Below are positions 37,834-56,972 of a DNA stretch of 64,000 nucleotides, piece by piece. The stretch is from Candidatus Margulisbacteria bacterium GWF2_35_9 (GTDB taxonomy: Bacteria > Margulisbacteria > Riflemargulisbacteria > GWF2-35-9). Position numbers and translations under genes: made by a program. The stretch's first letter is position 1; each line of letters begins with the position of its first letter. Under the pieces are notes generated by a model, which did no database searches, had not been told where the DNA came from, and saw nothing but the letters and a program-made list of their open reading frames with translations. The stretch is from NCBI GenBank assembly GCA_001783275.1, contig MFRH01000061.1, positions 11,524 to 75,523 of the forward strand. The letters run 5' to 3'.

Positions 37834-38489
37834 TTGCTGATTATACTGTAGTACGTTCAAGTCGCAAAACAATAGCTTTAGTAATTGATAGCGAAGCGAA
37901 TCTTATAGTACGAGCACCTAACAATATTAAAGATAGTGAAATAGCGGATTTTGTCAAAAAGAAAAGGCATTGGATTAATGATAAACAATACCAAGTATCT
38001 ACATTTGCAGAAAAGCACAGTCGTGTTATCTTTGAAACTGGCGAAAATTTTCTATACCTCGGAGATGAGTATACAATTTTGCGCTCTAAAGAAAGTAAGA
38101 TATGTTTTTCCGGCACAAATATTTTAATACCAGAAAATTTCAACTTAAGTGATGTGTTAAGTTGGCTAAAAGAAGTTGCAAGTAACATCATAAACGAGCG
38201 AGTTTCACGATATTCTTCATTGATGGGTGTTACATATTCATCCATAAAACTATCTAAGGCAAAGGCTCGTTGGGGTTCCTGCAGTTCAAAGGATAGTTTG
38301 AATTTTGCATGGAGATTAATAATGTGTCCCATTTCAGTTATTGATTATGTTGTAGTACATGAATTAAGTCACATTACCTACAAAAACCACAGTGCTTCTT
38401 TTTGGTCAAGAGTTAAAACAGTGTTGCCAAACTACAAAGAACAGCAAGACTGGCTTAAATTAAACCGAAAACTTATGGAAATAATTTAG
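37830..38489 (+). CDS. YgjP-like metal-dependent hydrolase (DUF45/M48-like, HExxH)
   Basis: VVVHELSHI zinc-binding motif. 4-nt overlap with hsdR. Confidence 0.7.
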   Translation: MIADYTVVRSSRKTIALVIDSEANLIVRAPNNIKDSEIADFVKKKRHWINDKQYQVSTFAEKHSRVIFETGENFLYLGDEYTILRSKESKICFSGTNILIPENFNLSDVLSWLKEVASNIINERVSRYSSLMGVTYSSIKLSKAKARWGSCSSKDSLNFAWRLIMCPISVIDYVVVHELSHITYKNHSASFWSRVKTVLPNYKEQQDWLKLNRKLMEII

Positions 38490-38541: not shown

Positions 38542-39906
38542 ATGGAGGCAATAGCTATGTTTAATAATAATAGACATTTAAATATTTTCGAGCATTATTC
38601 TCAAGCAAATGCTCTACCAATTGAAAATAATGTTTCGCGTGGTCTTGCAATTGTGATGAGTGAAAACCCATTACTATTAGATCGCTTTATTGACTATTTA
38701 AATTCAAAGTGTGGCACAGGAATTGAAGTACAGAAGCATAGCAAAGCCGAAGATGTTGACATTGGGATACAACAAAGCATAACAAAAATTATTGATGCAT
38801 ATCCGAGTCCAAAGTTAATTGTTGGCATGACTCTTACTACAGAAAAACACGTTGAGTGGTCAGAAGACACTACTAAACCCGGTGAAACGCTGATTACAGA
38901 TATTGTAATCAAATACAAGGATACTTTTATTGTTATTGAAGTAAAACGAAATTCTGCTGATGCCAGAACACAGGTTCAAACCCAAGTAGAGAGTTTGGTT
39001 AATGAAATACAAAAACGTAACGAGTCAATACCTTCGGTAGATTATATCAATGGAAATTGGGAAGACATAATTGAGATAATTCAACAAGTACATAGCATTA
39101 CTGGGAGAAGTGAAAACAGCATTCTAAGTCACTACTTAAAACACTTAGAGCATCGATACGGACAGTGGTTTCCTGTTTCTCTTCTTTCTGAAATAAATAT
39201 TTCCATAGATAATCAAATACTAATTGAAAAAAGGCTAATAAAAATTATTCAAAATTGTTGTAAAAACGAAGATGACGAAAAGAAATATACAGGCAGATAT
39301 ATCATACCTCTTGATTATAGCTTCCTATCAGAGGCACAAGTAGATATAGATTATGATAAAAAGTGTTTAATGGTTACTGTTTGGCCTGGTGACACGAAAT
39401 GGCAAGGTTATAATTTATACAAGACAACGAAGCATGATTTAAACTGGATAAATGACAATGAAATAATTGTTGATGATACAAAACTTGAACTTATCGTAGA
39501 ACCATATCTTCGATTTGCACATTTTCAATCAACAATATTTGCACCTTATATAAAGAAAACATATTATAATCAGCACTTTGGCTCGAGCAAAGAAAAGTGT
39601 TTAGAACTTTGGAATGACATAACAAAAGAATGGAAACGGGCTTCATGGGATGAGCTGAAAAATAAATTACTAAATAAATATAGCGGGCTTGTTGATAAGG
39701 AAGAATTCAATGAAGGTTTTATAAGCAAGTTTGAAAATTCAAACCGTGGCTATGTTCATGTGTCATTTGGTTATGAAGTAACTGCATACATACCTGAAAA
39801 AGTGTTTAAACAACTGGAGCGAAAAGGAAACTCAGAAAAGCAGAACGATAAATTAGCAAAATTTGTTAACCATGTTATCGATGCAATAATATCTAAAATT
39901 GTATAA
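38542..39906 (+). CDS. hypothetical protein with PD-(D/E)xK nuclease-like core
   Basis: ITDIVIKYKDTFIVIEVKR has D...E-x-K spacing. Located in the RM island. Confidence 0.35.
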   Translation: MEAIAMFNNNRHLNIFEHYSQANALPIENNVSRGLAIVMSENPLLLDRFIDYLNSKCGTGIEVQKHSKAEDVDIGIQQSITKIIDAYPSPKLIVGMTLTTEKHVEWSEDTTKPGETLITDIVIKYKDTFIVIEVKRNSADARTQVQTQVESLVNEIQKRNESIPSVDYINGNWEDIIEIIQQVHSITGRSENSILSHYLKHLEHRYGQWFPVSLLSEINISIDNQILIEKRLIKIIQNCCKNEDDEKKYTGRYIIPLDYSFLSEAQVDIDYDKKCLMVTVWPGDTKWQGYNLYKTTKHDLNWINDNEIIVDDTKLELIVEPYLRFAHFQSTIFAPYIKKTYYNQHFGSSKEKCLELWNDITKEWKRASWDELKNKLLNKYSGLVDKEEFNEGFISKFENSNRGYVHVSFGYEVTAYIPEKVFKQLERKGNSEKQNDKLAKFVNHVIDAIISKIV

Positions 39907-39956
39907 GTGTAAATTTGAAGAGTGTTTAACACTATACCAAGCGAAGGGGGTATTTA

Positions 39957-40322
39957 ATGGAAAACGCATTATGGAATGGTAAATTATATCATGCAACAGA
40001 AATTGCTAACAATTATTCTCTTGAAAAAGAAATAAGAAAAGCAAGTGGACGAAAAGAATTATACTGTCCTGATCCTGAATGCGACCATAAAATTCTTCGC
40101 TATTGCCACGGTGAAATTAAAGAAGCATTTTTTGCACATCTTAATAACGAAAGTTGTGATTATGCTAATTTTGACAAAGAAAATACAAAAACAATGCGGA
40201 CAGTACGGCGACTTATTTATGATAAATTTAAGAGTAAGGGATATAATGTACAACCAGAACGGATGACGATTATTAAAAAATCTTGTTCCCATCAATATAA
40301 ACCTATCGTTCCAGACGTATAG
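39957..40322 (+). CDS. CoiA N-terminal-like Cys/His protein (121 aa)
   Basis: LYCPDPECDHKILRYCHGEIKEAFFAHLNNESC resembles the CoiA N-terminal zinc-finger-like region. The nuclease body is absent. Confidence 0.35.
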   Translation: MENALWNGKLYHATEIANNYSLEKEIRKASGRKELYCPDPECDHKILRYCHGEIKEAFFAHLNNESCDYANFDKENTKTMRTVRRLIYDKFKSKGYNVQPERMTIIKKSCSHQYKPIVPDV

Positions 40323-40711: not shown

Positions 40712-42517
40712 ATGAAACGAATATTGACAGCATACAAAGACTTACTTGGAATAATATTCGGTAAAGCCCCGATAATGGTTATCGTCACTTTTTTATTAGC
40801 AATTATCACCGGATTATTAACTCCCTTAGGAGTTTATGTTAATCAGCATGTTTTTGACGGTGGATTGGCGGTAGCACAGGGTGTAATGACTTTTACGAGT
40901 TATTCTTTTTATCTTGTGTTGTTTGTAATAATTGCACTTTTGCCTACAATAATAAGCGGCATTGTATGGAATTATGTTCAGCCCCGTTCTATATTGATTT
41001 TAAGAACATCATATAAAGAACGTATGCTTAAGAAGCTTAAAACAATGAAGTACGAGCACTTTGAGAGTGAAAAGTCCGCAGAAATAATAGATAAAGCATA
41101 TAACAGAGCGGAAAGTTCGGCTAGACACCTGTGGCCTATGTATGTTAATTACTGGATAATATCTGTTATCTCCGGTATTGGCTCGCTTGCCTATATTGTA
41201 AGTATACGGTGGTGGCTTTTACTTACAGTTTTAATTCCTTTTATACTCGAAACATATATCTCATCAAAAACAAATTATAACATTTATTCCGAACTAGAAA
41301 CATATTGGGAAAAGGAAAGAAAGTACAGCACTCTCGGATGGTATTTAAGGTCAAGGGATTTTTCTAAAGAAATAAAAGCGTTTGGTAATTCAGACTATTT
41401 AATTGATACATATAAAAATAGGTTGAATGAGCGAAACAAGGATTATGAACGCTATTATTTTAAGAATCTGCGAAAGATATTGTTAGGAGAAAACATTACA
41501 AGAATTGCATCCATTGTAAATGTAATTATTTTACTTATATTATTTGTATACGGGAAGATGTCGGTGGGACTTTTTATTGCTATGACACGCTTGATGTTCG
41601 GCGGAGTATACGAGAGTTTAGGAGGATGTGCGTTTATATTCAAATGGGCACCATATCACATAAACTCATTCGATTATTATGACAAATTCTTTAACTTGTC
41701 CGACGAATCGGAGGGAACGGAGAAGGATCTACCAGAATCATTTGACATTGAGTTCCGTGATGTGTGGTTCCGATATCCGGGAACCGAAAAGGATATATTG
41801 AAAGGTTTGACTTTTAAGATAAAGAACGGAGAAAAAGCTTCAATTGTTGGAGAAAACGGTGAGGGCAAGTCAACCCTTATAAAATTATTACTAGGGATTT
41901 TCACTCCTGATAAAGGTGAAATATTAATCGGCGGAAAGAAACTGTACGACTATCCTTTAAGTGTTAGGACAAAAATATTCGGACCGGTATTTCAAGACTT
42001 TTCCAGATACAGTATAACATTGAAAGAAAATATCGGTATCGGCGAAATCGATGAGATTGACAACGACAAAAAAATAATAATGGCGGCTAAAAAAGGTAAG
42101 GCAGATGAGTTTGCGGAGAAGTTTGAGAAAGGTTATGATACGCTGCTTGGCAGAGACTTTGATGGTGGCGTTGATGTATCTGGAGGGCAATGGCAGAGAA
42201 TAGCGATCTCCCGTGCGTTCATGGGTAATAAGCCAATATTGTTGCTGGATGAACCAACTTCCCAACTGGATCCGTTGGCGGAAGCTAATTTATATAACGA
42301 GTTTGCAGAAATAGCGGAGAACAAAACTGCGATTTTTATAACTCACAGATTAGGTTCAACAATGATCACTGACAGGATTTTCGTAATAAGCGACGGTAAA
42401 ATCATGGAATCTGGAACACACGAGGAACTGATGCGGTCAGAAGGTATTTATTCAAATATGTTCAACGCGCAGAAACAGTGGTATAAAAAGGAAGCGGAGG
42501 TCGTCGTAAATGCCTAA
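40712..42517 (+). CDS. ABC transporter permease/ATP-binding protein (exporter half-transporter)
   Basis: 6-TM TMD plus NBD: GENGEGKST, VSGGQWQRIAISRA, LLLDEPTSQLD, ITHRL. Confidence 0.85.
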   Translation: MKRILTAYKDLLGIIFGKAPIMVIVTFLLAIITGLLTPLGVYVNQHVFDGGLAVAQGVMTFTSYSFYLVLFVIIALLPTIISGIVWNYVQPRSILILRTSYKERMLKKLKTMKYEHFESEKSAEIIDKAYNRAESSARHLWPMYVNYWIISVISGIGSLAYIVSIRWWLLLTVLIPFILETYISSKTNYNIYSELETYWEKERKYSTLGWYLRSRDFSKEIKAFGNSDYLIDTYKNRLNERNKDYERYYFKNLRKILLGENITRIASIVNVIILLILFVYGKMSVGLFIAMTRLMFGGVYESLGGCAFIFKWAPYHINSFDYYDKFFNLSDESEGTEKDLPESFDIEFRDVWFRYPGTEKDILKGLTFKIKNGEKASIVGENGEGKSTLIKLLLGIFTPDKGEILIGGKKLYDYPLSVRTKIFGPVFQDFSRYSITLKENIGIGEIDEIDNDKKIIMAAKKGKADEFAEKFEKGYDTLLGRDFDGGVDVSGGQWQRIAISRAFMGNKPILLLDEPTSQLDPLAEANLYNEFAEIAENKTAIFITHRLGSTMITDRIFVISDGKIMESGTHEELMRSEGIYSNMFNAQKQWYKKEAEVVVNA

Positions 42518-44414
42518 GAAAATTAAAGACAAACTAGAAGAAAAAATACCTGTATACGAAATAAAATACGAGGACAACACCACAGACTTTGAAAAAGATA
42601 TACTAAAAGAAAATCCACCCAAGCTGTCATATTTGACAAAGCTATTTAGATATGTTTTCTCATCTGCGAAATTAATGTGCGGTATTTTTTTAGGTCTAGC
42701 GATAATATTAAGTATATTACAACCGGTAACGGCATTTATCTGGGGAAGATATATCGACACCGCAAACGGTTATTCTGGTAAAATAGAGATTTCATCACTT
42801 CAATTAATTTCACTTATCAGCCTTGCGGTGATATATTTGGTTATTGGTTTTATCATTAATCTTTTAAATCGTTATCTTTATGGAGGAGAAGATATTGAGC
42901 GAATAAGTAAAGTTCAGGATCATCGCTTACAGGAAAAATTTCAAGCGAAGTTATTCAAAAAAATATCGATGTTGTACCCCGATTATATGGAAGTACCGAA
43001 AATCAACGATATTATAAATCGCAGTTTTGATTCAATGGGTGGTGAATGGAGTTCTCTTCAAAGAGGAGTTATTATCGAAGGGTATATTATTATTGCGAAA
43101 ATTATCTCTGTTATAATGGTTGCCGCTTCTTTGTATATTTTTAATCCGATATTATGCTATATAGTGCTGGTAGCACCGATACCAACTCTTTACACAACTT
43201 ATGTAGGAAACAAATTAAAATTTAAGTTTTCGCGTGATAACGGGAAGATCCTGCGTGAAGCTGATTATTATCAACGAGTGCTGCTTGGCAGTTCAGCAAA
43301 AGAAGTAAAAGCATTGAATCTATTTGATTTCTTTTTTACAAAGTGGAAAGTATTAGCGGATGATTATGTGGTGAAAGAAAAGAAAAACCAGCAGAATGTG
43401 TTTTTTCTCGGAATGGCAAGCGGCTTTGTATCAAATATTGCAAGTATTACAGCGAACGTTTTCGCGATTATTCTAATGACGCAGGGTAAACTATCGGTCG
43501 GTGCACTGGGTGCGGTCTTGTCATTGAATGGAACTCTCTTGAACAGCACATCCCAATTATTCAACTCAGTCGCAAACTTTGTATCTAAGAAAAACGAATC
43601 GGCACAGTTTTTCGAGCTTATAGATTTAAAAGAACAGATGTTAAAAGATGTTATGAAAAAAGAAACACCGACCATCGTGAATACATTGGAAGCTATGAAT
43701 ATATGTTACCGTTATCCTCTGACTGATGAATACAGAATAAGAAACGTAAATTTTACAATAAATAAAGGTGAAAAAGTTGCGTTTGTCGGTGAAAATGGTG
43801 CAGGTAAAACAACGTTCATAAAATTATTAATAGGAATGCTTGAACCGTCAAGCGGAGAAGTCCTGATAAATGGAATTGATGTGAAATATATTAATTTTTC
43901 AGAAAAATATGATTCTTTATCATATGTTTTTCAGGAACCAGCCAGATTTAACACATTTACAATCGGTGACAATGTTTTTTTCGGCGAAGTGAAGAGAGAA
44001 CGAAACGAAAGTCAGATAGACAAAGCCCTTAAATTTTCCGGTTTTGAAGGAGCAGAAAAAGATACGTTACTTGGTAAAGATATTGGTGGAACTGATTTAT
44101 CCGGTGGCCAGTGGCAGAAAATTGCTATCGCTCGTGCTTATTACAGAGACCGTGATTTTATTGTTCTTGATGAACCTACCAGTAATTTAGACCCGTTTGC
44201 CGAATCCGAAATTTTCAGAAAATACATAGCAATGACAGAAGGAAAGACTGTCATCATGGTTACACACAGAATAAGTGTCGCTTCACTTGCCGATAGAGTC
44301 GTTGTTTTCAAAGACGGTGAAATTGTTGAAGACGGCTCTCATGAAAAGTTATTATCAAATAATGGTGAATATACAAGGTTATATTCAACACAGGCAAAAT
44401 GGTATGACAGATAA
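42510..44414 (+). CDS. ABC transporter permease/ATP-binding protein (second half-transporter, heterodimer partner)
   Basis: GENGAGKTT, LSGGQWQKIAIARA, VLDEPTSNLD, VTHRI. 8-nt overlap with the upstream gene. Confidence 0.85.
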   Translation: MPKKIKDKLEEKIPVYEIKYEDNTTDFEKDILKENPPKLSYLTKLFRYVFSSAKLMCGIFLGLAIILSILQPVTAFIWGRYIDTANGYSGKIEISSLQLISLISLAVIYLVIGFIINLLNRYLYGGEDIERISKVQDHRLQEKFQAKLFKKISMLYPDYMEVPKINDIINRSFDSMGGEWSSLQRGVIIEGYIIIAKIISVIMVAASLYIFNPILCYIVLVAPIPTLYTTYVGNKLKFKFSRDNGKILREADYYQRVLLGSSAKEVKALNLFDFFFTKWKVLADDYVVKEKKNQQNVFFLGMASGFVSNIASITANVFAIILMTQGKLSVGALGAVLSLNGTLLNSTSQLFNSVANFVSKKNESAQFFELIDLKEQMLKDVMKKETPTIVNTLEAMNICYRYPLTDEYRIRNVNFTINKGEKVAFVGENGAGKTTFIKLLIGMLEPSSGEVLINGIDVKYINFSEKYDSLSYVFQEPARFNTFTIGDNVFFGEVKRERNESQIDKALKFSGFEGAEKDTLLGKDIGGTDLSGGQWQKIAIARAYYRDRDFIVLDEPTSNLDPFAESEIFRKYIAMTEGKTVIMVTHRISVASLADRVVVFKDGEIVEDGSHEKLLSNNGEYTRLYSTQAKWYDR

Positions 44415-44597
44415 GATGCTTATACTTGACTTAATAAACGTATGGTTATAAAATTAATGTTATATTTGTCATAGTGATGAATGCGATAAATATCTGAATT
44501 GAGTATCTTTTTAATGAATTTTCTTAATTTTTAATGGGAGGTATGTTATTATTGATAAAATAATTCATATATAATTTTTAAAATTTTATAAACTAAA

Positions 44598-44626
44598 GAA
44601 AACCCCATAGAGATTTTGTGGGGTTT
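44598..44626. terminator. bidirectional terminator
   Basis: aaaaccccat-agagattttg-tggggtttt. Confidence 0.6.
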
Positions 44627-44661
44627 TCCTTAGGGAGTTATAATGAAAAGTAGATAGTAAA

Positions 44662-46323
44662 TCAATTTTTAATAAATCTAACCATTCCGAATGTTGTGGG
44701 ATTATAATAGTCATACGTAGGATTAGACCAACATAAGACTGCATCAAGATCGGAATCATTCGTATCAACATTATTTAACACGAAATCCATACCGAGGTAA
44801 TTCAAGTTGGAGTAATTTATACCAAGTTTTTCCCATGATAATTGTAATGAAATCAAGTATCCCGATTCTGTTATTTTAAATGAAGCATCCTGCTCGTTTA
44901 GTGGAAAAGGTGTGTAAGCTCTTGTGTCTTGCCATTCTCCAATATACATAGAATCTATTCCATATTCACCTTTATCATTTATATATGGTGAAACAAATAT
45001 ACCGGTTGTAATTCCACTTTTATCAGTATCGAAATTTGGATTATATATAATTATATTAATACTTTCTGTCCACTTGTTTTCTCTTCCGGCTCCGCCCACC
45101 ATGACAATAGGATCATTAATATCAAACTCTATATATAACTTCTGTTCATCATATCGCATTGCTATTTTGCCATTATAATCATTTTTAGGTGTCAAAGCAC
45201 TTCTGCATATTGTACCAAAACGTTTTTTGGTTAAAGAATTTGATTTTTCGTCCATTAATATTTTAAAATTGCCTTTACTGTACTCACATAAATATTGCGA
45301 ATTATTCTCTAAACATTTCTTTATTACTTCTTTATTAATATCACTTAAATTTTTAGAACATAGATCCTTGCAGGAATATATTGTTCTAATATTTCTGTAA
45401 ATTTGGTCTTTCCAAAAGTTACAATCGTATTTTTGAATAACTTCCAATATTTCATCATTCAAAGGAGTAATACCTAATAACTCTTTTGACATTTTATTCG
45501 CGAACAGAATATCTTCAGAAAATCCATATAATTCTATTCGTTCATATAATATATCTTCATTTATATCTTCACGATATTTCTCTAAAATTAGTAATCCATC
45601 AACCAATGTCTTAAGATTATATTCAATAAAAGATTGTTTACTGTAATACCAATTAGATCCAATGCTGTCGAAAGTATGTCTTGCTGCGTGTTGTAACGCA
45701 AAAATGAATCTATCATATACATCACAAACATATATAGTTTTATTGTCTAACAAGAAAGGCTTTTTATGTAAAAAAACAGTTTCAATAAAATTATTACCGG
45801 TGCTTGTTTGAATAGAAAACCAACTTGCACTAACTGCCACATGCAGCTCTAAGTATATGTTCAATATTTTATCTTTTTTTAGGAATTTATCAATATGATG
45901 ATGACTCTTGTAACTTAAGTCTTTTTTAATAAGTTCAGGAGTTATTTCTTTTTCTCCATATTTATATTCTAATGATTTACAAGCATTACTAAATCTGACT
46001 ACATCACATGGCCGAATAAGTATATCAATATCATTTGACGGACGTTCATTCGGATTGGAATAAAGGTCGTAAGCTTCAGCAATACCTTTAAATAAAATAA
46101 TCTCTATATCCAGTGATTCGGCAATCTTGAAGAGCCTCTTTATTTCTTCTTTTATTTCAATCTGCCTATGTTTTTGTATTAATTTGGAGGTTGAGTTTTC
46201 ATTATTACTTTCTTTAGTTAAGAAATATTGAAGCCCAAAGAAAGTAGAATCTTTTTCAAGGTTTTCATCTTTAATATTTTGCTTGATTACTTTATTAATT
46301 TGGTCTAGAGTACCGTTAATCAT
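44662..46323 (-). CDS. nucleotidyltransferase-family protein (PF14907-like N-terminal half) with C-terminal beta-rich domain
   Basis: ILFKGIAEAYDLYSNPNERPSNDIDILIRP fits the 'uncharacterised nucleotidyltransferase' signature found in lasso/HPr-rel-A systems. Confidence 0.55.
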   Translation of the reverse strand: MINGTLDQINKVIKQNIKDENLEKDSTFFGLQYFLTKESNNENSTSKLIQKHRQIEIKEEIKRLFKIAESLDIEIILFKGIAEAYDLYSNPNERPSNDIDILIRPCDVVRFSNACKSLEYKYGEKEITPELIKKDLSYKSHHHIDKFLKKDKILNIYLELHVAVSASWFSIQTSTGNNFIETVFLHKKPFLLDNKTIYVCDVYDRFIFALQHAARHTFDSIGSNWYYSKQSFIEYNLKTLVDGLLILEKYREDINEDILYERIELYGFSEDILFANKMSKELLGITPLNDEILEVIQKYDCNFWKDQIYRNIRTIYSCKDLCSKNLSDINKEVIKKCLENNSQYLCEYSKGNFKILMDEKSNSLTKKRFGTICRSALTPKNDYNGKIAMRYDEQKLYIEFDINDPIVMVGGAGRENKWTESINIIIYNPNFDTDKSGITTGIFVSPYINDKGEYGIDSMYIGEWQDTRAYTPFPLNEQDASFKITESGYLISLQLSWEKLGINYSNLNYLGMDFVLNNVDTNDSDLDAVLCWSNPTYDYYNPTTFGMVRFIKN

Positions 46324-47353
46324 ATACTTCTACCTTCTTTAATTGATTTTTCAAATCATATCCTATGAATTGTAACTTTCTGAATTCACAATCGCCATCA
46401 TTACCAAGCGGGTCATTTGATATAAAATATGCAACCGCCATACAGCCTTTTTTACAATGACTTCTGATTATGCATTTCGAACAACCATAATCGATATTTT
46501 TTCTTTCGAGATTTATTGCTGCAATCTTCAACAAGTTTGATTCGAATTCATCTAATGAAAAATTAAATATATTACCTATACTATATTTACTATCATATAA
46601 TAGCTGACATGGTAAAATTGAACCATCGACTTTTATAGATATTTGCATTTCAGACTCAGTATCGTCAAGAGGACAATTTGAAGTACACAAGGGAGGAAAA
46701 ACTTTTAGTTTATACTCCTTATTTAATTTATCAATTAATTTAATAACAGATAGTTTTTGTGTTGCTGTTAAGCATTTTTGTTCCCAATCTTTTTCACCGT
46801 TTCCGGCACGGCTAATAAAAGCATAACTAGGTTTTATTCCTTTATTTAAAGAAAAAAGATAAAAGTTTTCTACATCTGATATATTAAGCTGTGAAATAAC
46901 CATCTTTAGGGTCATTTTTTTCTTATGTTTTCTTAACTCATCTATTAATTTAACTGTTTTACCGAAATTATTAGTTCCTCTTGTTTTTTTATTTATTTCT
47001 TCACATGAACCGTCAAGGCTTATCTGAAACGATAAATTATCAGTATTTATATATGTATTGATAATATTTTCATTAAAGATAGTCCCGTTTGTTATAATAC
47101 AAAATCTTAAGCTTGGATATTTCTCAGTTAATAAAGCAATCTTATCAATTTCGCTGTGAAGAAAAGGTTCGCCACCAGAAAAAACTATTTCGGTACAACC
47201 CAATTCTAACAATCTATTTATTATTAGATCAAATTGACCATATGATATTTCTTTTCTTATGTTGTTTAGCCCTGATCGGTTATAACAAGTATTACAGTTA
47301 AGATTGCATATATTTATTATTTCGATATAAGCTGAGTTAATTTTGATATTCAT
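46316..47353 (-). CDS. radical SAM peptide maturase with SPASM domain
   Basis: CNLNCNTC (CxxxCxxC). C-terminal Cys-rich CSKCIIRSHCKKGC auxiliary-cluster motif. Confidence 0.85.
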   Translation of the reverse strand: MNIKINSAYIEIINICNLNCNTCYNRSGLNNIRKEISYGQFDLIINRLLELGCTEIVFSGGEPFLHSEIDKIALLTEKYPSLRFCIITNGTIFNENIINTYINTDNLSFQISLDGSCEEINKKTRGTNNFGKTVKLIDELRKHKKKMTLKMVISQLNISDVENFYLFSLNKGIKPSYAFISRAGNGEKDWEQKCLTATQKLSVIKLIDKLNKEYKLKVFPPLCTSNCPLDDTESEMQISIKVDGSILPCQLLYDSKYSIGNIFNFSLDEFESNLLKIAAINLERKNIDYGCSKCIIRSHCKKGCMAVAYFISNDPLGNDGDCEFRKLQFIGYDLKNQLKKVEVYD

Positions 47354-47613
47354 GATTCAATAACTATCTTTTTTTCGATGAGTGAGTTAATGAAATCAGT
47401 CACATCATCTGATATTTCATTTGAAGTTATATCGTATAATTGTTTAAGATTCTTTATTATATCTTCCTTTTCGTTTATACCATCAATTTGCTTTAAAATA
47501 TCAGCTCCGCTTGCTTCAATAATATGTGTGTTTCCGGTATCGGGATCAAAAATAGCATAATTATCATTGTCGATTTCAATAAAATCAAACTTGTTATTCT
47601 TTACTAAACTCAT
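47350..47613 (-). CDS. PqqD family peptide chaperone (RiPP recognition element)
   Basis: 87 aa, PqqD-like three-strand/three-helix pattern. Overlaps both neighbouring genes. Confidence 0.65.
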   Translation of the reverse strand: MSLVKNNKFDFIEIDNDNYAIFDPDTGNTHIIEASGADILKQIDGINEKEDIIKNLKQLYDITSNEISDDVTDFINSLIEKKIVIES

Positions 47614-48055
47614 TATTTGTCGTCTCCTTTAAATATTTTTGTTTATATTTTTTATAAATATTACTTTCTATTGTTTTAAAATAATCATAGTCATTTCTGA
47701 CAAACTCTTTATTAACCTCTAAAGACATATTTATAAAATCAATATCAACACTAGGAATATCAAGCACTTTTCCTATAATGTCATTTTTACCTACTTCCTC
47801 TAACCTATAACAATTATCACCTTTACAGTAATATTTACCGTCTTTTATTTCAAGGATTCTATGTATTAACAAACCTTCATCGTTATACTTAAAAACAATC
47901 ACCGAACCTACTTCATATTCTTTCGCTTTCTTTATTAATACTTTATCTCCGTCCTTTAATACAGGAAACATACTGTTTCCGACTACTGTTATTTGAAACG
48001 AGTTTTGGGACTCTGTTTTATGCTTTAAAATGCTGAACATTATTTTGTTATTCAT
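47594..48055 (-). CDS. S24/S26 family (signal-peptidase-I/LexA-like) serine peptidase
   Basis: VVGNSMFPVLKDGDKVLIKK resembles the GDSMxPTL catalytic-Ser box. Confidence 0.5.
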   Translation of the reverse strand: MNNKIMFSILKHKTESQNSFQITVVGNSMFPVLKDGDKVLIKKAKEYEVGSVIVFKYNDEGLLIHRILEIKDGKYYCKGDNCYRLEEVGKNDIIGKVLDIPSVDIDFINMSLEVNKEFVRNDYDYFKTIESNIYKKYKQKYLKETTNNEFSKE

Positions 48056-48860
48056 AAGATAATTCCTTTATATAATCCAAAACAAAATTCATATCTGAAT
48101 ACCTTAGTATCTTACATTTTGATGATAACTTACTCAAAAATGATATATATTTTGAACTTACTTTATATGTTGTTGCGGCATTCTTCATAAGTAGCACTAA
48201 AGCTTTTGATGTAGGTATATCAACGACTTCATTTTTTTCATCAGTCCGTTCAATAAAAAAAATGTATCCTAGTTTCATTACATCAGGTGATAAGTTATCT
48301 GGATTAAAAATAAATCTCTGTATGGTAGGTGTATTTATAATTGTGGATATTGGAGGTTCAGTATCGTATTCTTTAAGTACCTGCATCCCTCCTGCTCTTA
48401 AATGAATAGGCACTTGGTAAGGATAAAAATCGAAGTTCTTCATATCTATATATGTACAATCATCTGTTGCATAATTTAAACCTTTTAAAGTAAGAAAAGC
48501 TGTAAGCGTAGTTTTACCTGAACTTGTAGAAGCAGCAAATAAATATGAATGATTATTATAATAAACACATCCTGAGTGTAGAGCAAAAATGTTTTCATTT
48601 ATAGATGCGTTTTCAAAAATGATATTTACTATTTCCTGTAGAGGATTATTTGTTTGTTTCTTTTTATCGTAATAAACAACATAATATTTATCATCATTAT
48701 ATTTTTCGACATTGATTTCAAAACAAGAAACATCATCCTGTATATCTGTATAAGTATATTTACCGTACAAATTGCCAATCATACTGTGAATTTCAATGCA
48801 ATTTGTATTTATCTTTATATATTTATATGAACATGGTTTCAGTAAATAAATACTTAACAT
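48048..48860 (-). CDS. HprK-related kinase (HPr kinase C-terminal-domain-like P-loop protein)
   Basis: HSGCVYYNNHSYLFAASTSSGKTTLTAFLTLKGLNYATDD parallels the HprK [25 protein letters not shown] segment. Confidence 0.6.
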   Translation of the reverse strand: MLSIYLLKPCSYKYIKINTNCIEIHSMIGNLYGKYTYTDIQDDVSCFEINVEKYNDDKYYVVYYDKKKQTNNPLQEIVNIIFENASINENIFALHSGCVYYNNHSYLFAASTSSGKTTLTAFLTLKGLNYATDDCTYIDMKNFDFYPYQVPIHLRAGGMQVLKEYDTEPPISTIINTPTIQRFIFNPDNLSPDVMKLGYIFFIERTDEKNEVVDIPTSKALVLLMKNAATTYKVSSKYISFLSKLSSKCKILRYSDMNFVLDYIKELSYE

Positions 48861-48987
48861 CTTCTACACCTTATGACATTATTTTTAAATTAAATGGATT
48901 ATAACACATATTTTTTTCAATTGCAATAGGATATTGAAATTAAACTTGCAAAAATCGACATTTTTAACAAAATAATGCATCAATGTA

Positions 48988-49015
48988 TTGACAATTTTAA
49001 ATTTTTAGATATAAT
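48988..49015 (+). promoter_or_regulatory. consensus sigma-A promoter
   Basis: TTGACA-16 nt-TATAAT. Lies inside the ORF-track ORF 48975.., which argues for the later start at 49053. Confidence 0.5.
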
Positions 49016-49052
49016 AAAATTATATAATAATAAAAAGGGGTGTATTAATGTT

Positions 49053-50081
49053 ATGAAATATATAAAAACACCTGGTGAAATATATGACTTATTTAAGCTA
49101 TTTATATACAATTTTAACAAAGAAGATTATGATAAAAAAATACTTAATGGTAATTCAAGAGAATTTGAGTTATTATGGAAAACGGTATTAAATGGTTCGC
49201 AAATAAACGATAAATTATATATGTTTTTTTATAAATTAAATAATAAATCAACTTTTATGACAGAGCATTTTTTTACTTCATTTTATAATGATTTTACTGA
49301 TCCAGATTTTTTTACAAATATGTGCGAAAGAATTCGTTCCATGGATTTATTTGTCGAAATATTAAAATACTATTTAGATAAAGATTCCTTTGAAATTCGA
49401 GATGTTTATTCTGCTGATTATATTTATGAATTGTCATTAAAAATTGATATACCCGATAGAATTAGACTTCAAATATTACATTTTAATTATAACAGGAATC
49501 AATATTCAGATATTTTAATTAATGAGTTAAAAGAAAAACATGAGCTTATAAAAAATTATTATTCCGAAAATTCTAATAAGATAGATGAAATTAAAAATTC
49601 AATGTTAAATGATCTAATACAATTGAATTTATGCAAGGAAATTGATTTAAGTTCAGAATATATGAATACTTATTATTATTCTGTTTCATTACTTCAAGAT
49701 AAATTCTATGCTTTTTTAAATAATCAAAATAAAGACTTTATTGTAATAGGTTACGATTCGATTAATAACTTAGATTATATTAACAAATTCAAAAATAATG
49801 TTAACATAAGTAAAGTTTCGAAAGCTCTTTCTGATGAATTTCGTATAATTATGTTAAATTTTATAAAAGAAATAGGCGAAATTACTACCTCTGATATTGC
49901 AAGAGAATTTAATATGGGACTTACAGCAATGTATTACCATTTAAGCATGCTTTATGAAGCTAAAATCTTAAGTACACGCAATGAAGGAAGGACGGTGTTT
50001 TACAAAATTAATAGTGAATTTCTAGAAATCTACTCGGAGTTTATTAAACGGTTCGCCTTGGAAGGAGGTGTAAATTTATGA
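49053..50081 (+). CDS. hypothetical protein with C-terminal ArsR-type winged-HTH
   Basis: ITTSDIAREFNMGLTAMYYHLSMLYEAKILSTRNEGRTVFYKI. Start at the in-frame ATG downstream of the promoter. Confidence 0.5.
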   Translation: MKYIKTPGEIYDLFKLFIYNFNKEDYDKKILNGNSREFELLWKTVLNGSQINDKLYMFFYKLNNKSTFMTEHFFTSFYNDFTDPDFFTNMCERIRSMDLFVEILKYYLDKDSFEIRDVYSADYIYELSLKIDIPDRIRLQILHFNYNRNQYSDILINELKEKHELIKNYYSENSNKIDEIKNSMLNDLIQLNLCKEIDLSSEYMNTYYYSVSLLQDKFYAFLNNQNKDFIVIGYDSINNLDYINKFKNNVNISKVSKALSDEFRIIMLNFIKEIGEITTSDIAREFNMGLTAMYYHLSMLYEAKILSTRNEGRTVFYKINSEFLEIYSEFIKRFALEGGVNL

Positions 50082-50200
50082 AAAAATGGTCTAAACCTAC
50101 CGTTATAACAATAAGCGAAAAAGAATTACAGGAAATAATATTAGTTCAAGCATGTTCTGGATATAAATGCGTATTGTTTTATGGACAAATTGAATTTTAA
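50078..50200 (+). CDS. candidate 40-aa RiPP precursor peptide MKKWSKPTVITISEKELQEIILVQACSGYKCVLFYGQIEF
   Basis: GGAAGGAGGTG SD 7 nt upstream. ATG overlaps the upstream stop (ATGA). Charged leader and Cys/Tyr/Gly-rich C-terminus. A strong terminator follows. Below the ORF-track size cutoff. Confidence 0.4.
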   Translation: MKKWSKPTVITISEKELQEIILVQACSGYKCVLFYGQIEF

Positions 50201-50235
50201 CATATTATTATGTTAAGTGAGATTGATATTAATAA

Positions 50236-50290
50236 CTGCACCTAATTATTTATGTAGTGTAAACATAAGTAATTAAGGTGCAGTTTTTTG
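50236..50290 (+). terminator. strong rho-independent terminator
   Basis: ctgcacct...aggtgcag stem with a structured internal loop, followed by TTTTTT. Confidence 0.6.
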
Positions 50291-50538
50291 TGTAAAATTT
50301 TATATCGAATTTTGGATTATATTAATTAAAATTGATGAATTCAATAGATTATTTAAGTCGAATAAAGTAGAATAATGAAATAGAGTTATTAAATATAGAC
50401 AAAATAATAATAAAATGTTTGGTAATATTTATATTAAACTAATTGTTGTAATTCAAATATAAATAGAGTATAATATAAAAAGATTTAAACCAACAACATG
50501 AATATAAATTAATAAATGCAAATTGGAGGTATTAGTAA

Positions 50539-50960
50539 TGTTAGCGAATAATAAAACTAAAATTTTATCAAACGGAAAAATGTTATTAAGACCATTTAAT
50601 ATGAATGATGTAGGTGATATGTATTGTAACTGGTCAAATGAAATGGGCCATGTATTTTTTCCTAAATATTCACTTCATATGAACTGGGAAATAACATTTG
50701 AAAGAATTAGGAATATAATCGATTCATATTTGTCAGAAGATACATATATATGGGCAATTGAATATAGTAATGGAGTTATTGGCTATATCGAAGTTGTTAA
50801 TATATATAATAATGATTCATCATGCTGTATTTATTACTATTTATGTTCTAAAGTTAATGATAAGATTTTTATAAATGAAGCTATAAGTTTAGTAGATAAT
50901 TATTTGCAAAATTCTATTGGTATAAATAATATTAAATACAAAGACATACTTAATACTTAA
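50539..50960 (+). CDS. GNAT family N-acetyltransferase (RimJ/RimL-like)
   Basis: LLRPFNMNDVGDMYCNWSNE-type N-terminus. Start chosen at the ATG with GGAGG SD. Confidence 0.55.
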
Positions 50961-51123: not shown

Positions 51124-54100
51124 ATGTATTGGAAAGGTAAAATAATGAAAAATATATTACCAATCAATTTAAATCCAAAAATCACATCAGAATGTTGGAC
51201 ATATTTAAGATCAGCTATAATAGATGCATATCCACATCTAATTAATTGGTATGTTAATCATCTTGACATTTTATATATCAATGATAATTTTGATGTTAAT
51301 TATGGTGAATATGGAGATAAGTATCAAGTTTTACAACATTATGAATCTGTATTAAATTCTTATACCAGAAATATACTTGATTTAACATATGATAATATAA
51401 TAGATTTTATTATAGAACAAATTAATAATGATAAATATATAATGATTGATTGTGATTTATCAAAATCAATAAATATAAATATTGGGCAGATATTAATTTA
51501 TGGATATGATATGGAAGAACAGATTTTTTATATAGCAGGAATTGGAACTGGATGCTCAACATATCTAATGAAAGTTATAGCCGAAGCATTTCTTGTACGT
51601 AAAGTTATAGATCTTAAAGAGTTAGAAAAAACTATATTTAATAGACAAGTAATTTATCCGATATCTATATTTGAAGTACGCAAGGATTGTAATATTGAGC
51701 CAGATCTTAATTTATTTCTAAATCATTTAAAAAGACAATTATCTCGGATAAAATATGATAAGAATTGTGAAAACTTCAATTCATCTTTTAGGGAAGGGAT
51801 TTGTTCGGTTTATGACGGATTCTTAGAAATGCTTGTTAAAATTAAAAATGGCACTTTTGATGTTACAACAATGATTCATAGTTTTCCGTATAATTTTAAT
51901 AAACTTATTGAATTTCATAATGTATTTAAGTGGCGCTTGGAATATTTAAATAATCTATATTCGTTAAATATAAATAATAATGTATATTCCAAACTAGATT
52001 TAACAATTAAAGAACTCGAAATATGTAAAAGTTTAGCATCTAAATATTTAGAAACAAGAAATAATAATAATATTGATAAAATACAAAATTATTTAATAAG
52101 TATATTACTAAAAGAAGAAAATCTTATATCAAACTTAATACAAAAGATATCAAAAAATATTTTATATGGATTTGAATCTTATTTTTATAATAATTATGAA
52201 ATGAAAATAAATAAAAAAATAAAGAAAATTATCCAATGTCCCATATTATTATATCATCATTTTGTGAATGAAGAAACAGCTAATATGGAAAATAGAACAA
52301 CTGCTATGAAATTCGAAGAAGATATTAGTATACTTATTGAACATGGCTATAAATCTATATCACTTGAAGATTTTTATAAATACGAAATAGGTGTAAAAGA
52401 ATTACCCGAAAAACCATTTATTATTACGATAGATGATGGATATCTTAGTAACTATGAAATAGCTTTTCCGATTTTAAAAAAATATAATGTTTATGCTGAA
52501 ATATTTATTGTTACGGATTTTATCGGTTTAAATACTCATCCGGATTTCCCGAACCTTATACCTCATTTTAGTAATGGACAAGCTATAGAAATGGAACAAA
52601 GCGGATTAATTAAAATACATTCACATGGAAAATGGCATAAACCAAATGCTTATATGAGTTATGAAGAATTTTCAATAAACATCAATGATTCTACGCAATC
52701 AATAAATAATATTAAATTAGATAAGAACTTTGTCTGTTATGCTTATCCTGAAGGAATTTTTAATGATTATACTATAGATATGATTAATAAGGAAGGTTAC
52801 AAATATCAATTAATAAATAAAAATGATTTAACAATTAGTAATTTAAATAAAGGATGTTTAGGAAGGATTTGTGTTAATCATAAATCAGATGTTTATTCAT
52901 TAATAAAAGATTACAATGTTTATATAAACAATTTTATAAATAAATTATATAAATCAGAAACTCTTATTTTAAGCAATGATATATTAAGTAAATACAAAAA
53001 CTTAAGTACTATATTAGATGAATGTCAATTTAAGTATAAAAACAAATATGATTATAATATAAAGTCCATTAAATATGATGGAATAGATATTACATGCAAT
53101 GAAGATGAATTAATAATATATAGTTGTAAAAAAGCGTTAAAGGAAACGCAGTCGGATAATTATGAAATTATTATAGATAAAGATAATAAAATAATAGGCG
53201 ATAACATAAGTGGAGATACTGTTATTCCCCAGGGGGGATATGTTTTATCAAGTAATGGAAGAGCATGCAAAACTTTAAAGTCAATGTATATACCAAATGC
53301 TGATGTATTTATTTGTAAAAGTGAAAATAAAATATTAATTTTAGAAACACCGAAACTAAGAATACATAACACTTTTTTGTCATTTGAAAATATTAAAGAT
53401 AAGTTTGAAATATCTAAGAATAAATATTTTTATTTTAATTATCAAGAAATACAGAATAAAATAGATGAATTACAAATAATAGTAAATGACTGTAAATCAT
53501 CATTAGAAATTAATGAAAACGAAACATCGTTGCAATTATCCAAAGTAATTAATGATCAAATTAAAAACATTGAATATATGCTTATTCCTAATAAAGTTAT
53601 AGAAAACCGTGCTGTATGGTATAGAAGCAATGAAAAAAGTGATATTGCAGTAAGAAAAGTAATTGAAAAAGTATCATCATTAAATATTAATTGTATATAT
53701 TTGGAAACATGGTATGATGGTAAGTTTATAGGATATTCAGATAATCCCCTTATTGAGCATCAAGAGTGGCATAATAGTAATTTTGATGCACTTGAAGCAT
53801 TTTGTCGAATAGGACATGAATATAATATAGAAATTCATGCCTGGGTAGAAAATTTTTTTATAGGCACAGTTGAATCTGCTCTAGTTAATAAAAACAATTT
53901 AATTAATAAGATGGAGGATAGATACCTTTTAGATAAAAATAATAATTATTACAATCAAACTGTATATGGTAAATACGTTTTTCTGAATCCATATGATAAT
54001 TACTGTAGAGATTTTTTATTAGATTTATATAAAGAAATATTATTAAAATATAGTGTTGATGGAATACACCTTGATTATATTCGCTTTCCTGATTTAAATT

Positions 54101-54999
54101 ATGGAAAATATGATTATGGTTATAATAAAGATATAATCCGTGGTTTCCAATATAAATATAATACATATGTTGATGTGCGTTCTCTAAATGAATCTGATGA
54201 GATGCATAAAGAATGGTGCAAATTCAGAGAAGATATAATTAATAGTTTTGTTGAAGAAGTACACAATTTAGTTAAAAGAGTAAATCATAATAAATGGATT
54301 TCATGCGCATGTTATTCTAACGTTGATATTGCACCAAAAACTATTTTTCAAAATTTGTCTGAATGGGTTAAGAATGGTTGGATTGATGAAGCTTTTTCGA
54401 TGTCCTATGCCGAAAATTGTTCATATGTTGAAAAAAGTGCAGATTCGTTTATAAAAATATGTAAAGATAATGTATTTTATTCAATAGGATTAAAAGCATT
54501 TGACGATATTCCTGAATTGGATGTATTAAATCAAATAAAAACTTCTAGAAATAAAAATACAAACGGAATATCTTTATTTGCTTTAAATTATATAGATAAT
54601 TATGAACATATATTAAAAAAAGGAGTATTCAAACAAAAATCTGTTCAAGCATATAAAACAGATAAAATAATTACTGTGGGTATAAATGATATTTTAATAA
54701 AGATATCGAATGCTAATTCATACTTAAATTTATCAGGCACTAATTGTTTAGAAAATATCAGAAATCATTGTTTAGCGTTAATAACTAAAACGGAAATGTT
54801 GGATTTTTCTAAATTCAATAATGATGATAAAGTTACTTATGTTAATGATTGTATTAACGATATTAAATTAATTATCGAAACAATAGATGCATATACAATA
54901 AATAAAACTCTAGAAATATCTTTGAAAGAAGACTTTCTAATTTTGCTTAGCTTATTAAATAAAAATAAGAACAGATTAGTATCAAATATGTCGAAATAA
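51124..54999 (+). CDS. 1291-aa multidomain protein: unknown N-terminal domain + CE4 polysaccharide deacetylase + GHL10/DUF187 glycosyl-hydrolase-like domain
   Basis: PILLYHHF...ITIDDGY (NodB). CIYLETWYDG...IHAWVENFF...DGIHLDYIRFPD (DUF187/GHL10). No signal peptide. Extremely AT-rich. Confidence 0.55.
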   Translation: MYWKGKIMKNILPINLNPKITSECWTYLRSAIIDAYPHLINWYVNHLDILYINDNFDVNYGEYGDKYQVLQHYESVLNSYTRNILDLTYDNIIDFIIEQINNDKYIMIDCDLSKSININIGQILIYGYDMEEQIFYIAGIGTGCSTYLMKVIAEAFLVRKVIDLKELEKTIFNRQVIYPISIFEVRKDCNIEPDLNLFLNHLKRQLSRIKYDKNCENFNSSFREGICSVYDGFLEMLVKIKNGTFDVTTMIHSFPYNFNKLIEFHNVFKWRLEYLNNLYSLNINNNVYSKLDLTIKELEICKSLASKYLETRNNNNIDKIQNYLISILLKEENLISNLIQKISKNILYGFESYFYNNYEMKINKKIKKIIQCPILLYHHFVNEETANMENRTTAMKFEEDISILIEHGYKSISLEDFYKYEIGVKELPEKPFIITIDDGYLSNYEIAFPILKKYNVYAEIFIVTDFIGLNTHPDFPNLIPHFSNGQAIEMEQSGLIKIHSHGKWHKPNAYMSYEEFSININDSTQSINNIKLDKNFVCYAYPEGIFNDYTIDMINKEGYKYQLINKNDLTISNLNKGCLGRICVNHKSDVYSLIKDYNVYINNFINKLYKSETLILSNDILSKYKNLSTILDECQFKYKNKYDYNIKSIKYDGIDITCNEDELIIYSCKKALKETQSDNYEIIIDKDNKIIGDNISGDTVIPQGGYVLSSNGRACKTLKSMYIPNADVFICKSENKILILETPKLRIHNTFLSFENIKDKFEISKNKYFYFNYQEIQNKIDELQIIVNDCKSSLEINENETSLQLSKVINDQIKNIEYMLIPNKVIENRAVWYRSNEKSDIAVRKVIEKVSSLNINCIYLETWYDGKFIGYSDNPLIEHQEWHNSNFDALEAFCRIGHEYNIEIHAWVENFFIGTVESALVNKNNLINKMEDRYLLDKNNNYYNQTVYGKYVFLNPYDNYCRDFLLDLYKEILLKYSVDGIHLDYIRFPDLNYGKYDYGYNKDIIRGFQYKYNTYVDVRSLNESDEMHKEWCKFREDIINSFVEEVHNLVKRVNHNKWISCACYSNVDIAPKTIFQNLSEWVKNGWIDEAFSMSYAENCSYVEKSADSFIKICKDNVFYSIGLKAFDDIPELDVLNQIKTSRNKNTNGISLFALNYIDNYEHILKKGVFKQKSVQAYKTDKIITVGINDILIKISNANSYLNLSGTNCLENIRNHCLALITKTEMLDFSKFNNDDKVTYVNDCINDIKLIIETIDAYTINKTLEISLKEDFLILLSLLNKNKNRLVSNMSK

Positions 55000-55016: not shown

Positions 55017-56972
<1,956 letters not shown>

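Follow-up and report, generated by a model that had tools for sequence, protein, structure and literature searches.

Gene content of the cluster

A 64,000-nucleotide stretch of the genome of Candidatus Margulisbacteria bacterium GWF2_35_9 (contig MFRH01000061.1, positions 11,524 to 75,523 of the forward strand; hereafter the window) contains an operon of five minus-strand genes which, together with a divergent regulator gene and a small open reading frame (ORF) downstream of the regulator, is considered here as a candidate biosynthetic gene cluster for a peptide made on the ribosome and modified after translation (RiPP). The original prediction for this DNA had placed five overlapping genes at 44662-48860 in an AT-rich island, and had assigned them to an HprK-related kinase, an S24/S26-type peptidase, a PqqD-family RiPP recognition element (RRE), a radical SAM/SPASM maturase and a PF14907 nucleotidyltransferase. 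All five ORFs are present at these coordinates, with overlaps between successive genes, in operon order, of 8, 20, 4 and 8 nucleotides, and their GC content of 0.26-0.29, like that of the adjoining 49-55 kb (0.22-0.24), is well below that of the flanks (0.36 and 0.315). Profile searches bear out the five family assignments: measured against the curated Pfam and NCBIfam thresholds, which serve as the cut-offs throughout, four pass, while the kinase-like protein (K) is placed at the superfamily level through TIGR04352, below the cut-off. The catalytic signatures of all five enzymes are intact and co-inherited.

Table 1. Features of the cluster and its surroundings in window coordinates, with the number of related loci that contain each component, from a profile-based annotation (hidden Markov models, HMMs) of 27 non-redundant loci with adequate flanks
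Feature	Position	Strand	Description	Related loci (of 27)
HprK/PEPCK-fold P-loop kinase-like protein (K)	48048-48860	-	270 aa; operon gene 1	
Soluble Ser/His signal-peptidase-like S24/S26 peptidase	47594-48055	-	153 aa; proposed leader peptidase	26
PqqD-family RRE	47350-47613	-	87 aa; PF05402	25
Radical SAM/SPASM peptide maturase	46316-47353	-	345 aa; no N-terminal RRE	26
PF14907 nucleotidyltransferase (NT)	44662-46323	-	553 aa; fused to CBM9-like beta-sandwich; last operon gene	25 (a 26th further off)
Divergent promoter region	48861-49052		consensus matches	
Divergent regulator	49053-50081	+	uncharacterised N-terminal domain (~270 aa) and C-terminal ArsR/SmtB-type winged helix-turn-helix	26 (ArsR-like)
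Precursor peptide	50078-50200	+	40 aa; leader MKKWSKPTVITISEKELQEIILVQA, core CSGYKCVLFYGQIEF	24 (small ORF beside regulator)
Intrinsic terminator of regulator-precursor transcript	50235-50289	+	22-bp stem, then U6	
GC-rich hairpin	44596-44632		AAAACCCCA...TGGGGTTTT; between converging NT and ABC genes; read from the sequence	
Two half-transporter ABC exporter genes	40712-44414	+	601 and 634 aa; ABC_tran and ABC_membrane in both	13 (pair)
GNAT acetyltransferase	50523-50960	+	145 aa; Acetyltransf_3, 1.1e-08; downstream of precursor	
1291-aa protein	51124-54999	+	Polysacc_deac_1, 3.1e-17; GHL10, 2.9e-19	
Protein of ~335 aa without Pfam match				9
Acyl carrier protein (ACP) and FkbH-like/HAD module			absent from the window	22
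DUF6514 and XRE pair				14

A conserved precursor peptide family

The small ORF that had been put forward as a candidate precursor gene forms a bicistron with the regulator gene: its start codon overlaps the regulator stop codon (ATGA), and a GGAGG sequence lies 9 nucleotides 5' of the ATG. The transcript would end at a hairpin with a long imperfect stem and a 7-nucleotide loop (folding energy -28.1 kcal/mol, z = -7.2 against 200 shuffles), which was spotted by eye and confirmed by folding; the automatic terminator scan called none and missed it. An HMM seeded with the precursors of four loci recovered 33 unique peptides, and this conserved family, together with the Shine-Dalgarno sequence and the terminator, establishes the candidate as a real gene.

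The frame W-x-x-P-x17-Ala-x-Ser is fixed in all 33 precursors, whose leaders follow the consensus M-K-x-W-K-K-P-x3-T-L-x-A-x-E-L-x2-H-I-K-A-A-A; the leader in the window carries the family-wide W-x-K-P...E-L-x-x-x-I motif. Around the proposed leader-core junction, Ala at P1 and Ser at P2' are invariant, and P3 is A, V, L, I, G or T in every member. The cores, by contrast with the leaders, are hypervariable and range from 9 to 28 residues, yet each of the 33 contains one or two Cys, with a Cys 1-8 residues downstream of the P2' Ser, and 26 of them end in Arg, which is preceded by Phe in 15. The major subtype, AA↓[RWK..]-S-x1-4-C-x3-6-[FY]-R (the arrow marks the proposed junction), pairs with fused peptidase-PqqD proteins; the minor subtype, A↓C-S-x-aromatic-x1-5-C..., pairs with split genes and includes both the window core CSGYKCVLFYGQIEF and its closest relative, in locus L059, where a leader ending in ...ILASA is followed by CSVYICVFSKTLSIET. 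In short, the arrangement by which RiPP clusters are recognized is present: in 24 of the 27 loci, the maturase genes have beside them a short gene for a precursor whose leader is conserved and whose core varies.

Signal peptidase I enzymes obey a (-3, -1) small-residue rule, and the P3/P1 pattern of the proposed junction fits it. The A↓C-S junction of the minor subtype was also considered as a lipobox, but a lipoprotein reading was rejected, since the leaders are charged and have no hydrophobic h-region and the major subtype has no Cys at +1. Assignment to the MNIO-based DAG-RiPP system (PMC13056109) was likewise rejected, as Cys+1 is confined to the minor subtype and no MNIO gene is present.

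The regulator matches the HTH_20 and HTH_5 families, NF033788 (1.7e-13) and the SdpR family (3.8e-12), and the structures of HlyU and CadC match its residues 257-360. Its longest ORF begins at 48975, but the N-termini of its homologues align to Met27 of that ORF, which corresponds to an ATG at 49053 preceded by a GGGG Shine-Dalgarno sequence, and a perfect sigma-70 promoter match (TTGACA-16-TATAAT, 48988-49015, plus strand) falls inside the longest ORF; the true start is almost certainly 49053 rather than 48975. On the minus strand, the operon is preceded by a consensus match of the form TTGCAA-17-TATAAT with an extended TG (48926 to 48898). At the other end of the operon, the GC-rich hairpin between the converging genes is probably a bidirectional terminator; the automatic scan did not call this one either.

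Conservation across related loci

About 50 related loci were collected from contigs encoding homologues and from a scan of one genome per species, and nearly all of them come from gut, rumen or groundwater Clostridia (Oscillospirales), including two loci in Fumia xinanensis NSJ-33, the one cultured carrier found, for which RSWGCSSNQSR is a predicted core. The original prediction had proposed a comparison of gene neighbourhoods across Clostridia, and this comparison found each core gene co-occurring in 24-26 of the 27 annotated loci, an arrangement far beyond chance. It had also named two outcomes that would have counted against it, and neither was observed: the kinase, PqqD and NT genes did not turn out, by profile, to belong to unrelated families, nor does their synteny point to a non-peptide pathway.

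It is on this evidence that the case for a pathway of the latter kind can be judged. The CBM9-like domain on the NT, and the polysaccharide deacetylase and GHL10 domains of the neighbouring 1291-aa protein, would be at home among carbohydrate or sugar-nucleotide genes serving the cell envelope, with the small ORF a fortuitous one. However, both the CBM9 fusion and the deacetylase/GHL10 domains are a feature of the window lineage that most relatives do not have, whereas the core components include a PqqD RRE and a radical SAM/SPASM enzyme of the peptide-maturase type, and the small ORF is kept in 24 of 27 loci with a fixed frame, its own Shine-Dalgarno sequence and a terminator, so that a non-peptide pathway is very improbable.

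A degenerate or split lasso peptide cluster, with its cyclase and B2 protease encoded elsewhere, is scarcely conceivable, although the combination of kinase, PqqD and PF14907 genes is typical of the Firmicutes lasso clusters that phosphorylate their products. The absence of the lasso cyclase and the B2 protease, already claimed in the original prediction, was borne out by the ORFs of the 38.5-55 kb region, which contain no such domain; nor is there an Asn-synthetase-like or transglutaminase-like gene in any of the related loci, where the radical SAM enzyme and the Ser/His peptidase are invariably found instead. In addition, the cores have no conserved acceptor Asp or Glu at positions 7-9, and some are only 9 residues long.

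One related locus, L059, is identical to the window in architecture and gene order, including the fusion of the NT to a CBM9-like domain. The most frequent accessory component, the ACP and FkbH-like/HAD module, occurs as two genes or as a fusion of ~394 aa adjoining the PF14907 gene (for example L001 5243-7068, L003 10531-12421 and L005 11202-12386), and suggests a building block of the glyceryl-ACP type; the window and L059 do not have the module and carry the long NT-CBM9 fusion instead.

Other observations concern individual loci. Directly downstream of the precursor gene, L007 has a second set of maturation genes (3478-7842) which comprises a GNAT protein, a PqqD protein, two radical SAM/SPASM enzymes, an HprK-like protein of 320 aa and a protein like a signal peptidase, and which resembles the layout with two radical SAM enzymes of the SynChlorMet system (see below); it was rejected as a bona fide SynChlorMet cassette, every score being below the curated cut-off. 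Three loci come from bins labelled Opitutales (L017), Paludibacteraceae (L023) and Legionellaceae (L035) and yet contain typical Clostridia versions of the cluster, and the L017 precursor is identical to that of L007; the odd labels could reflect mis-binning or recent transfer.

Processing and modification enzymes

The peptidase matches the Peptidase_S24 (1.1e-10) and Peptidase_S26 (2.9e-06) families, as well as the TIGR02228 model of signal peptidase I of the archaeal and endoplasmic reticulum (ER) type (59.1 bits, above the cut-off of 51.85). In an alignment of 42 sequences, G26-x-S28-M29-x-P31, H65-R66 and G79-D80 are invariant and N81 is present in 40, and His65 is aligned with the catalytic Lys of SpsB, all of which make this a Ser/His enzyme of the ER/archaeal type. 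The maximum hydropathy over a 19-residue window is 0.94 (KD19), so there is no membrane anchor, and the precursor leader is charged and is not a Sec signal peptide; the enzyme would therefore work like a signal peptidase but would not be a secretory one. In most related loci the peptidase is fused to PqqD in a single polypeptide of ~240 aa, and in L011 (8435-9940) an S24-type peptidase is fused to the PF14907 NT in a single protein of 501 aa; such fusions are taken to link the parts of the cluster functionally. The (-3, -1)-type junction and the RRE fusion are the reasons for proposing that this soluble protein is the leader peptidase, in which case it would be a functional analogue of the B1-B2 pair of lasso clusters, evolutionarily unrelated to it.

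The PqqD protein matches PF05402 at 1.4e-12, which identifies it as an RRE and predicts leader binding; its weaker matches, to the PqqD, ScmD, WgkC, lasso PqqD and HPr-rel-A PqqD models, are all below cut-off. The radical SAM enzyme, for which a look-up of the exact protein gave no record, exceeds the cut-offs of Radical_SAM (PF04055, 9e-22) and SPASM (PF13186, 4.7e-05). At the level of specific families, its best NCBIfam match is ScmE (111.8 bits), followed by StsB (101 against a cut-off of 625), MftC (92.7) and PapB (79.6 against 340), with SkfB (53.8 against 300) and AlbA (49.6 against 850) lower still, so that all of these matches fall far short of the thresholds. Among 41 aligned sequences, C16, C20 and C23 of the CX3CX2C motif are conserved in every one, and C223, C227, C249, C291, C294, C300, C304 and C322 in 38-41; the CX2CX5CX3C motif at 291-304 completes a full SPASM domain of the kind found in peptide maturases. 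The nearest solved structure is SkfB (PDB 6efn, 2.5e-11). The protein begins directly at the CX3CX2C motif (residues 16-23) and therefore needs a separate RRE.

K has the fold of the HprK/PEPCK-like superfamily, with an acidic DD motif after its Walker-A P-loop. Across 32 aligned homologues there is an invariant HprK-like core, consisting of ALHGAAV, the P-loop TTSGKTTLT and TDD, and all 32 match HprK_rel_A, while 18 match ScmC (weakly, the best at 5.1e-07), 12 match HprK_rel_B and three match genuine HPr(Ser) kinase; weak PF27840 matches also occur among the homologues. K itself has no match in the Pfam library searched and none to the ScmC model at E < 0.01, and its profile has no meaningful match among PDB sequences, so that only the fold search placed the protein. 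The term "HprK-related kinase" is nonetheless a fair description of it at the superfamily level. In an exhaustive profile search, the specific K family (E <= 1e-30) was found to comprise 217 clusters at 50% identity, within a wider superfamily of about 13,600.

The NT matches NTP_transf_5 (PF14907, 1.6e-19), above the Pfam cut-off, retains the Pol-beta-type G...D-x-D metal site, and carries a CBM9_1 match (3.1e-07). Comparison of its profile with PDB sequences gave nothing significant; by fold, it is closest to the MenT toxins, TglT and the antibiotic-inactivating enzymes ANT(2'') and LnuA. The fusion to a CBM9-like domain is shared by just three database proteins, one of them in L059, and BLAST found no homology between this domain and the C-terminal extensions of the other long NT proteins, of which those in L031 and L053 are homologous to each other. 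A 54%-identical NT-CBM9 protein stands in L060 (3487-7127) beside a different, 448-aa radical SAM enzyme, a PqqD protein and a small ORF whose leader is similar (MKKYTKPTLIACTDTELQEIIFAGASCPNCYQCGTFNSGNC), a group with IS110 and Mutator-type transposases at its flanks; distinct radical SAM systems thus appear to share the NT-CBM9 module and this kind of leader.

Proposed pathway and alternatives

The evidence assembled above makes it probable (roughly 0.7) that the locus is a RiPP biosynthetic gene cluster of an uncharacterised family in which the components act as follows. The discrete PqqD RRE would bind the leader and present the core to the radical SAM/SPASM enzyme, which has no RRE of its own and would form a crosslink within the peptide, most likely a thioether derived from Cys. 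A thioether is favoured, with moderate confidence, because Cys is the sole universal radical-reactive residue of the cores and because the nearest characterised relatives, StsB, SkfB and PapB, make thioethers.

A different route to a ring must be weighed at this point, since the two invariant features of the cores are the P2' Ser and a Cys 1-8 residues downstream of it. K could phosphorylate the Ser for elimination to dehydroalanine, to which the Cys would add to give a lanthionine-type ring, leaving the radical SAM enzyme to act elsewhere, for example on the C-terminal aromatic-Arg pair of the major subtype; a simple Cys thioether would leave the conservation of that C-terminus unexplained. 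Class III/IV lanthipeptide synthetases are known to work through phospho-Ser, and the route would follow the same logic. Nevertheless it is rather unlikely: no lyase or cyclase domain was detected in any conserved gene, the C-terminal motif is not universal (the window core ends in E-F, not F-R), and the nearest characterised relatives of the radical SAM enzyme form thioethers on Cys.

In the preferred pathway, with its thioether crosslink, K would phosphorylate a hydroxyl group, the invariant Ser at core position 2 being the candidate by analogy with PadeK and PsmK, and the NT would add a nucleotidyl or glycosyl group to the core Ser or phospho-Ser; the CBM9-like domain hints at a carbohydrate ligand. 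There is precedent for an HprK-family kinase and a PF14907-type enzyme acting on a RiPP Ser (PMC6993621, PMC12639078): PsmK phosphorylates a lasso-peptide Ser, and once pseudomycoidin is phosphorylated, the addition of hexose to it requires PsmN (PMC6993621).

These two proteins might alternatively serve self-protection or regulation, for example by phosphorylating or nucleotidylylating a cellular target or the mature product to give immunity, or might act on a small-molecule co-substrate. The NT fold is nearest to those of MenT toxins, TglT, ANT(2'') and LnuA, of which the ANT and Lnu enzymes inactivate antibiotics, the best fold match of K is to the metabolite kinase PEPCK, and the link of both proteins to the precursor is inferred. 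Such a role is improbable, however, given that the genes of K and the NT share the maturase operon, with translational coupling, and are inherited together with it in 25-26 of 27 loci, that L011 has the NT and the leader peptidase in one protein, and that the homologous PsmK/PsmN pair acts on the peptide itself (PMC6993621).

To complete the RiPP pathway, the soluble Ser/His peptidase would cut off the leader after an (A/V)-x-A site, and the ABC pair would export the product of 15 residues, CSGYKCVLFYGQIEF. Autoregulated production, as of a signal or an antimicrobial, is suggested by how tightly the precursor gene is coupled to its own regulator. The stronger proposal that the cluster defines a new RiPP class, characterized by RRE-partnered, signal-peptidase-like leader removal at A-x-A, and by cores of 9-28 residues bearing both a radical SAM crosslink and a phospho-, nucleotidyl- or glycosyl-Ser installed by K and the NT, is put forward tentatively, at somewhat less than even odds. 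On this proposal, the translational coupling of the precursor to a dedicated regulator with a sensor-like domain of ~270 aa would favour an autoinducing signal over an antibiotic as the product.

Several points weigh against the pathway as drawn. The crosslink type and the substrates of K and the NT are all inferred, and the chemistry is a prediction. K scores weakly against HprK_rel_A (TIGR04352; 1.3e-10, 40.9 bits against a cut-off of 200) and over its whole length matches the PEPCK fold better than that of HprK/P, and its substrate could be something else than the peptide. The NT model is of moderate confidence (pLDDT, the predicted local distance difference test, of 74), and since 22 of 27 loci carry the ACP and FkbH-like/HAD module, the NT partner chemistry may involve a glyceryl-type unit, with a differing version in the window. 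Rather than marking a cleavage site, the invariant Ala-x-Ser could serve the radical SAM enzyme or the kinase in recognizing the peptide. Finally, the ABC pair was correctly described in the original prediction as converging on the operon, as the ORF map and domains agree, and such pairs lie inside 13 of the related clusters, but its membership of the cluster, and with it a possible role as exporter, is plausible rather than demonstrated, because the GC content of the two genes (0.35-0.37) is host-like and their products are only 27-31% identical to those of the in-cluster pairs of the relatives.

Genomic setting and neighbouring genes

The host is represented by a metagenome-assembled genome of Candidatus Margulisbacteria, not of a clostridium, although the relatives of the cluster are mainly found in Clostridia, and the low GC content suggests that the cluster was acquired horizontally. 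K is 100% identical to a hypothetical protein recorded for Candidatus Margulisbacteria bacterium GWF2_35_9. It is located in a stretch between the tmRNA gene (31275-31622) and groEL (55332-56972), which from 31.6 to 55 kb has the look of a variable region. An island integrated at the tmRNA gene was considered and rejected, as no repeat of the tmRNA 3' end of at least 12 nucleotides was found elsewhere in the window; with no att-like repeat, the boundaries of the island are undefined. A complete type I restriction-modification system directly follows the tmRNA gene (hsdM 32100-33575, hsdS 33568-34677 and hsdR 34690-37833), and is itself followed by a gene for a YgjP-like metallopeptidase (37830-38489). 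Two ORFs at 38542-40322, between this system and the ABC pair, encode proteins of 454 aa, which has no Pfam match, and 121 aa, which has only a weak CoiA_N match.

On the other side of the cluster, the GNAT acetyltransferase gene matches the island in GC content (0.237), and in L007 the corresponding position holds a GNAT that is not homologous to it; the window gene is a possible tailoring or immunity gene whose membership of the cluster is uncertain. The N-terminal ~340 aa of the 1291-aa protein belong to the family without Pfam match that occurs as separate genes of ~335 aa in some of the related loci (Table 1), and a profile of this accessory family gave nothing significant against PDB sequences; the rest of the protein consists of a polysaccharide deacetylase domain and a GHL10 domain, the latter glycosyl-hydrolase-like. 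The protein may serve in immunity or tailoring, or may be a target.

Significance

What is new here is a conserved seven-part system, consisting of a regulator, a precursor, K, an RRE, a signal-peptidase-like peptidase, a radical SAM enzyme and a PF14907 protein, together with a defined precursor family and a soluble, signal-peptidase-like leader protease that is fused to an RRE. Candidate new RiPP families are found regularly. If the predicted chemistry is correct, this one would represent a RiPP class in which radical SAM crosslinking is joined with phosphorylation-based decoration, and it would provide the first functions for HprK-related kinases of the ScmC/HPr-rel-A type, for PF14907 nucleotidyltransferases, and for soluble homologues of ER-type signal peptidases fused to RREs. 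According to a 2025 survey, only a few other pathways, among them those of lasso peptides, are so far known to phosphorylate RiPPs (PMC12639078). With some 217 clusters, concentrated in gut and rumen Clostridia, and one cultured isolate, the family lends itself to experiment and may matter for signalling or competition in microbiomes, and the conserved precursor frame offers a ready, testable set of substrates.

Comparison with known systems

The original prediction had held that the product would fall outside any described RiPP class, and this stands in part: no description of such a product was found, but the triad of kinase-like protein, PqqD protein and radical SAM/SPASM enzyme is already catalogued in silico as SynChlorMet (SCM), which means that a radical SAM enzyme beside the K family is not unprecedented. 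In the literature searched, which covered few subscription journals, there was no publication on the architecture or product of the window cluster; that literature also yielded no product or function for SynChlorMet, and on PF14907 a single phosphonate paper.

SynChlorMet is the closest catalogued system, followed by HPr-rel-A. SynChlorMet (ScmC, TIGR04249/PF27840; ScmD, TIGR04248; ScmE and ScmF, TIGR04250 and TIGR04251) shares the HprK-like, PqqD and radical SAM/SPASM parts, and ScmE is the best NCBIfam match of the radical SAM enzyme and ScmD the second-best of the PqqD protein. The scores are far below cut-off, however (111.8 against 400 for ScmE and 33.3 against 100 for ScmD), SynChlorMet has a pair of radical SAM enzymes, ScmE and ScmF, where the window has one, and the S24/S26 peptidase, the PF14907 NT and the bicistron of ArsR-like regulator and precursor are not named as parts of SynChlorMet in the models consulted. 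HPr-rel-A (TIGR04352 with TIGR04353, PqqD_rel_X) pairs an HprK-related kinase with a PqqD-family peptide chaperone, as the window does, but here too the proteins fall outside the family, with scores of 40.9 against 200 for K and 23.7 against 35 for PqqD, and the core of a radical SAM/SPASM enzyme and a signal-peptidase-like enzyme sets the window cluster apart. Because the scores are far below every curated cut-off of both systems, the cluster belongs to neither.

The tie that the original prediction drew between the trio of kinase, PqqD and NT genes and both HPr-rel-A and the phosphorylating lasso clusters agrees with the NCBIfam model descriptions and with the reported PsmK and PsmN (PMC6993621). 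The phosphorylated lasso peptides of Firmicutes (paeninodin, with PadeK, and pseudomycoidin, with PsmK and PsmN) share with the window a kinase of the HprK superfamily, an enzyme of the NT family, a PqqD-type RRE and an ABC exporter, and the NT of the window is a structural match to ANT(2''), the template on which PsmN has been modelled (PMC6993621, PMC12639078). They differ in that the window has a radical SAM/SPASM enzyme as its scaffold enzyme, a Ser/His S24/S26 protease and a CBM9-fused NT, and in that its candidate Ser is at core position 2, whereas PadeK and PsmK act at the C-terminus of lasso peptides; with neither a cyclase nor a B2 protease, the window cluster does not count among the lasso clusters.

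Sactipeptide and ranthipeptide maturases (StsB, SkfB, AlbA and PapB) share the full SPASM arrangement (CX3CX2C and eight further Cys), dependence on a PqqD-like RRE, and short Cys-containing cores; the window enzyme differs in scoring below the cut-offs of these families, in having no N-terminal RRE, and in serving very short cores with one or two Cys. The sactipeptide and ranthipeptide clusters described so far are not known to include a kinase-like protein, an NT or a signal-peptidase-like protease.

The peptidase, lastly, shares the GxSMxP motif, a His in place of the bacterial Lys, and the GDN motif with signal peptidase I of the ER/archaeal type (SipW, Sec11; TIGR02228), but unlike those enzymes it is unanchored and, within its family, fused or adjacent to an RRE, and the leader on which it would act is charged and amphipathic, with no Sec signal. 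The Ni-SOD maturation protease (TIGR02754) is an S26-type enzyme which trims a short N-terminal propeptide, and as such it provides a precedent for the trimming proposed here for the window peptidase.

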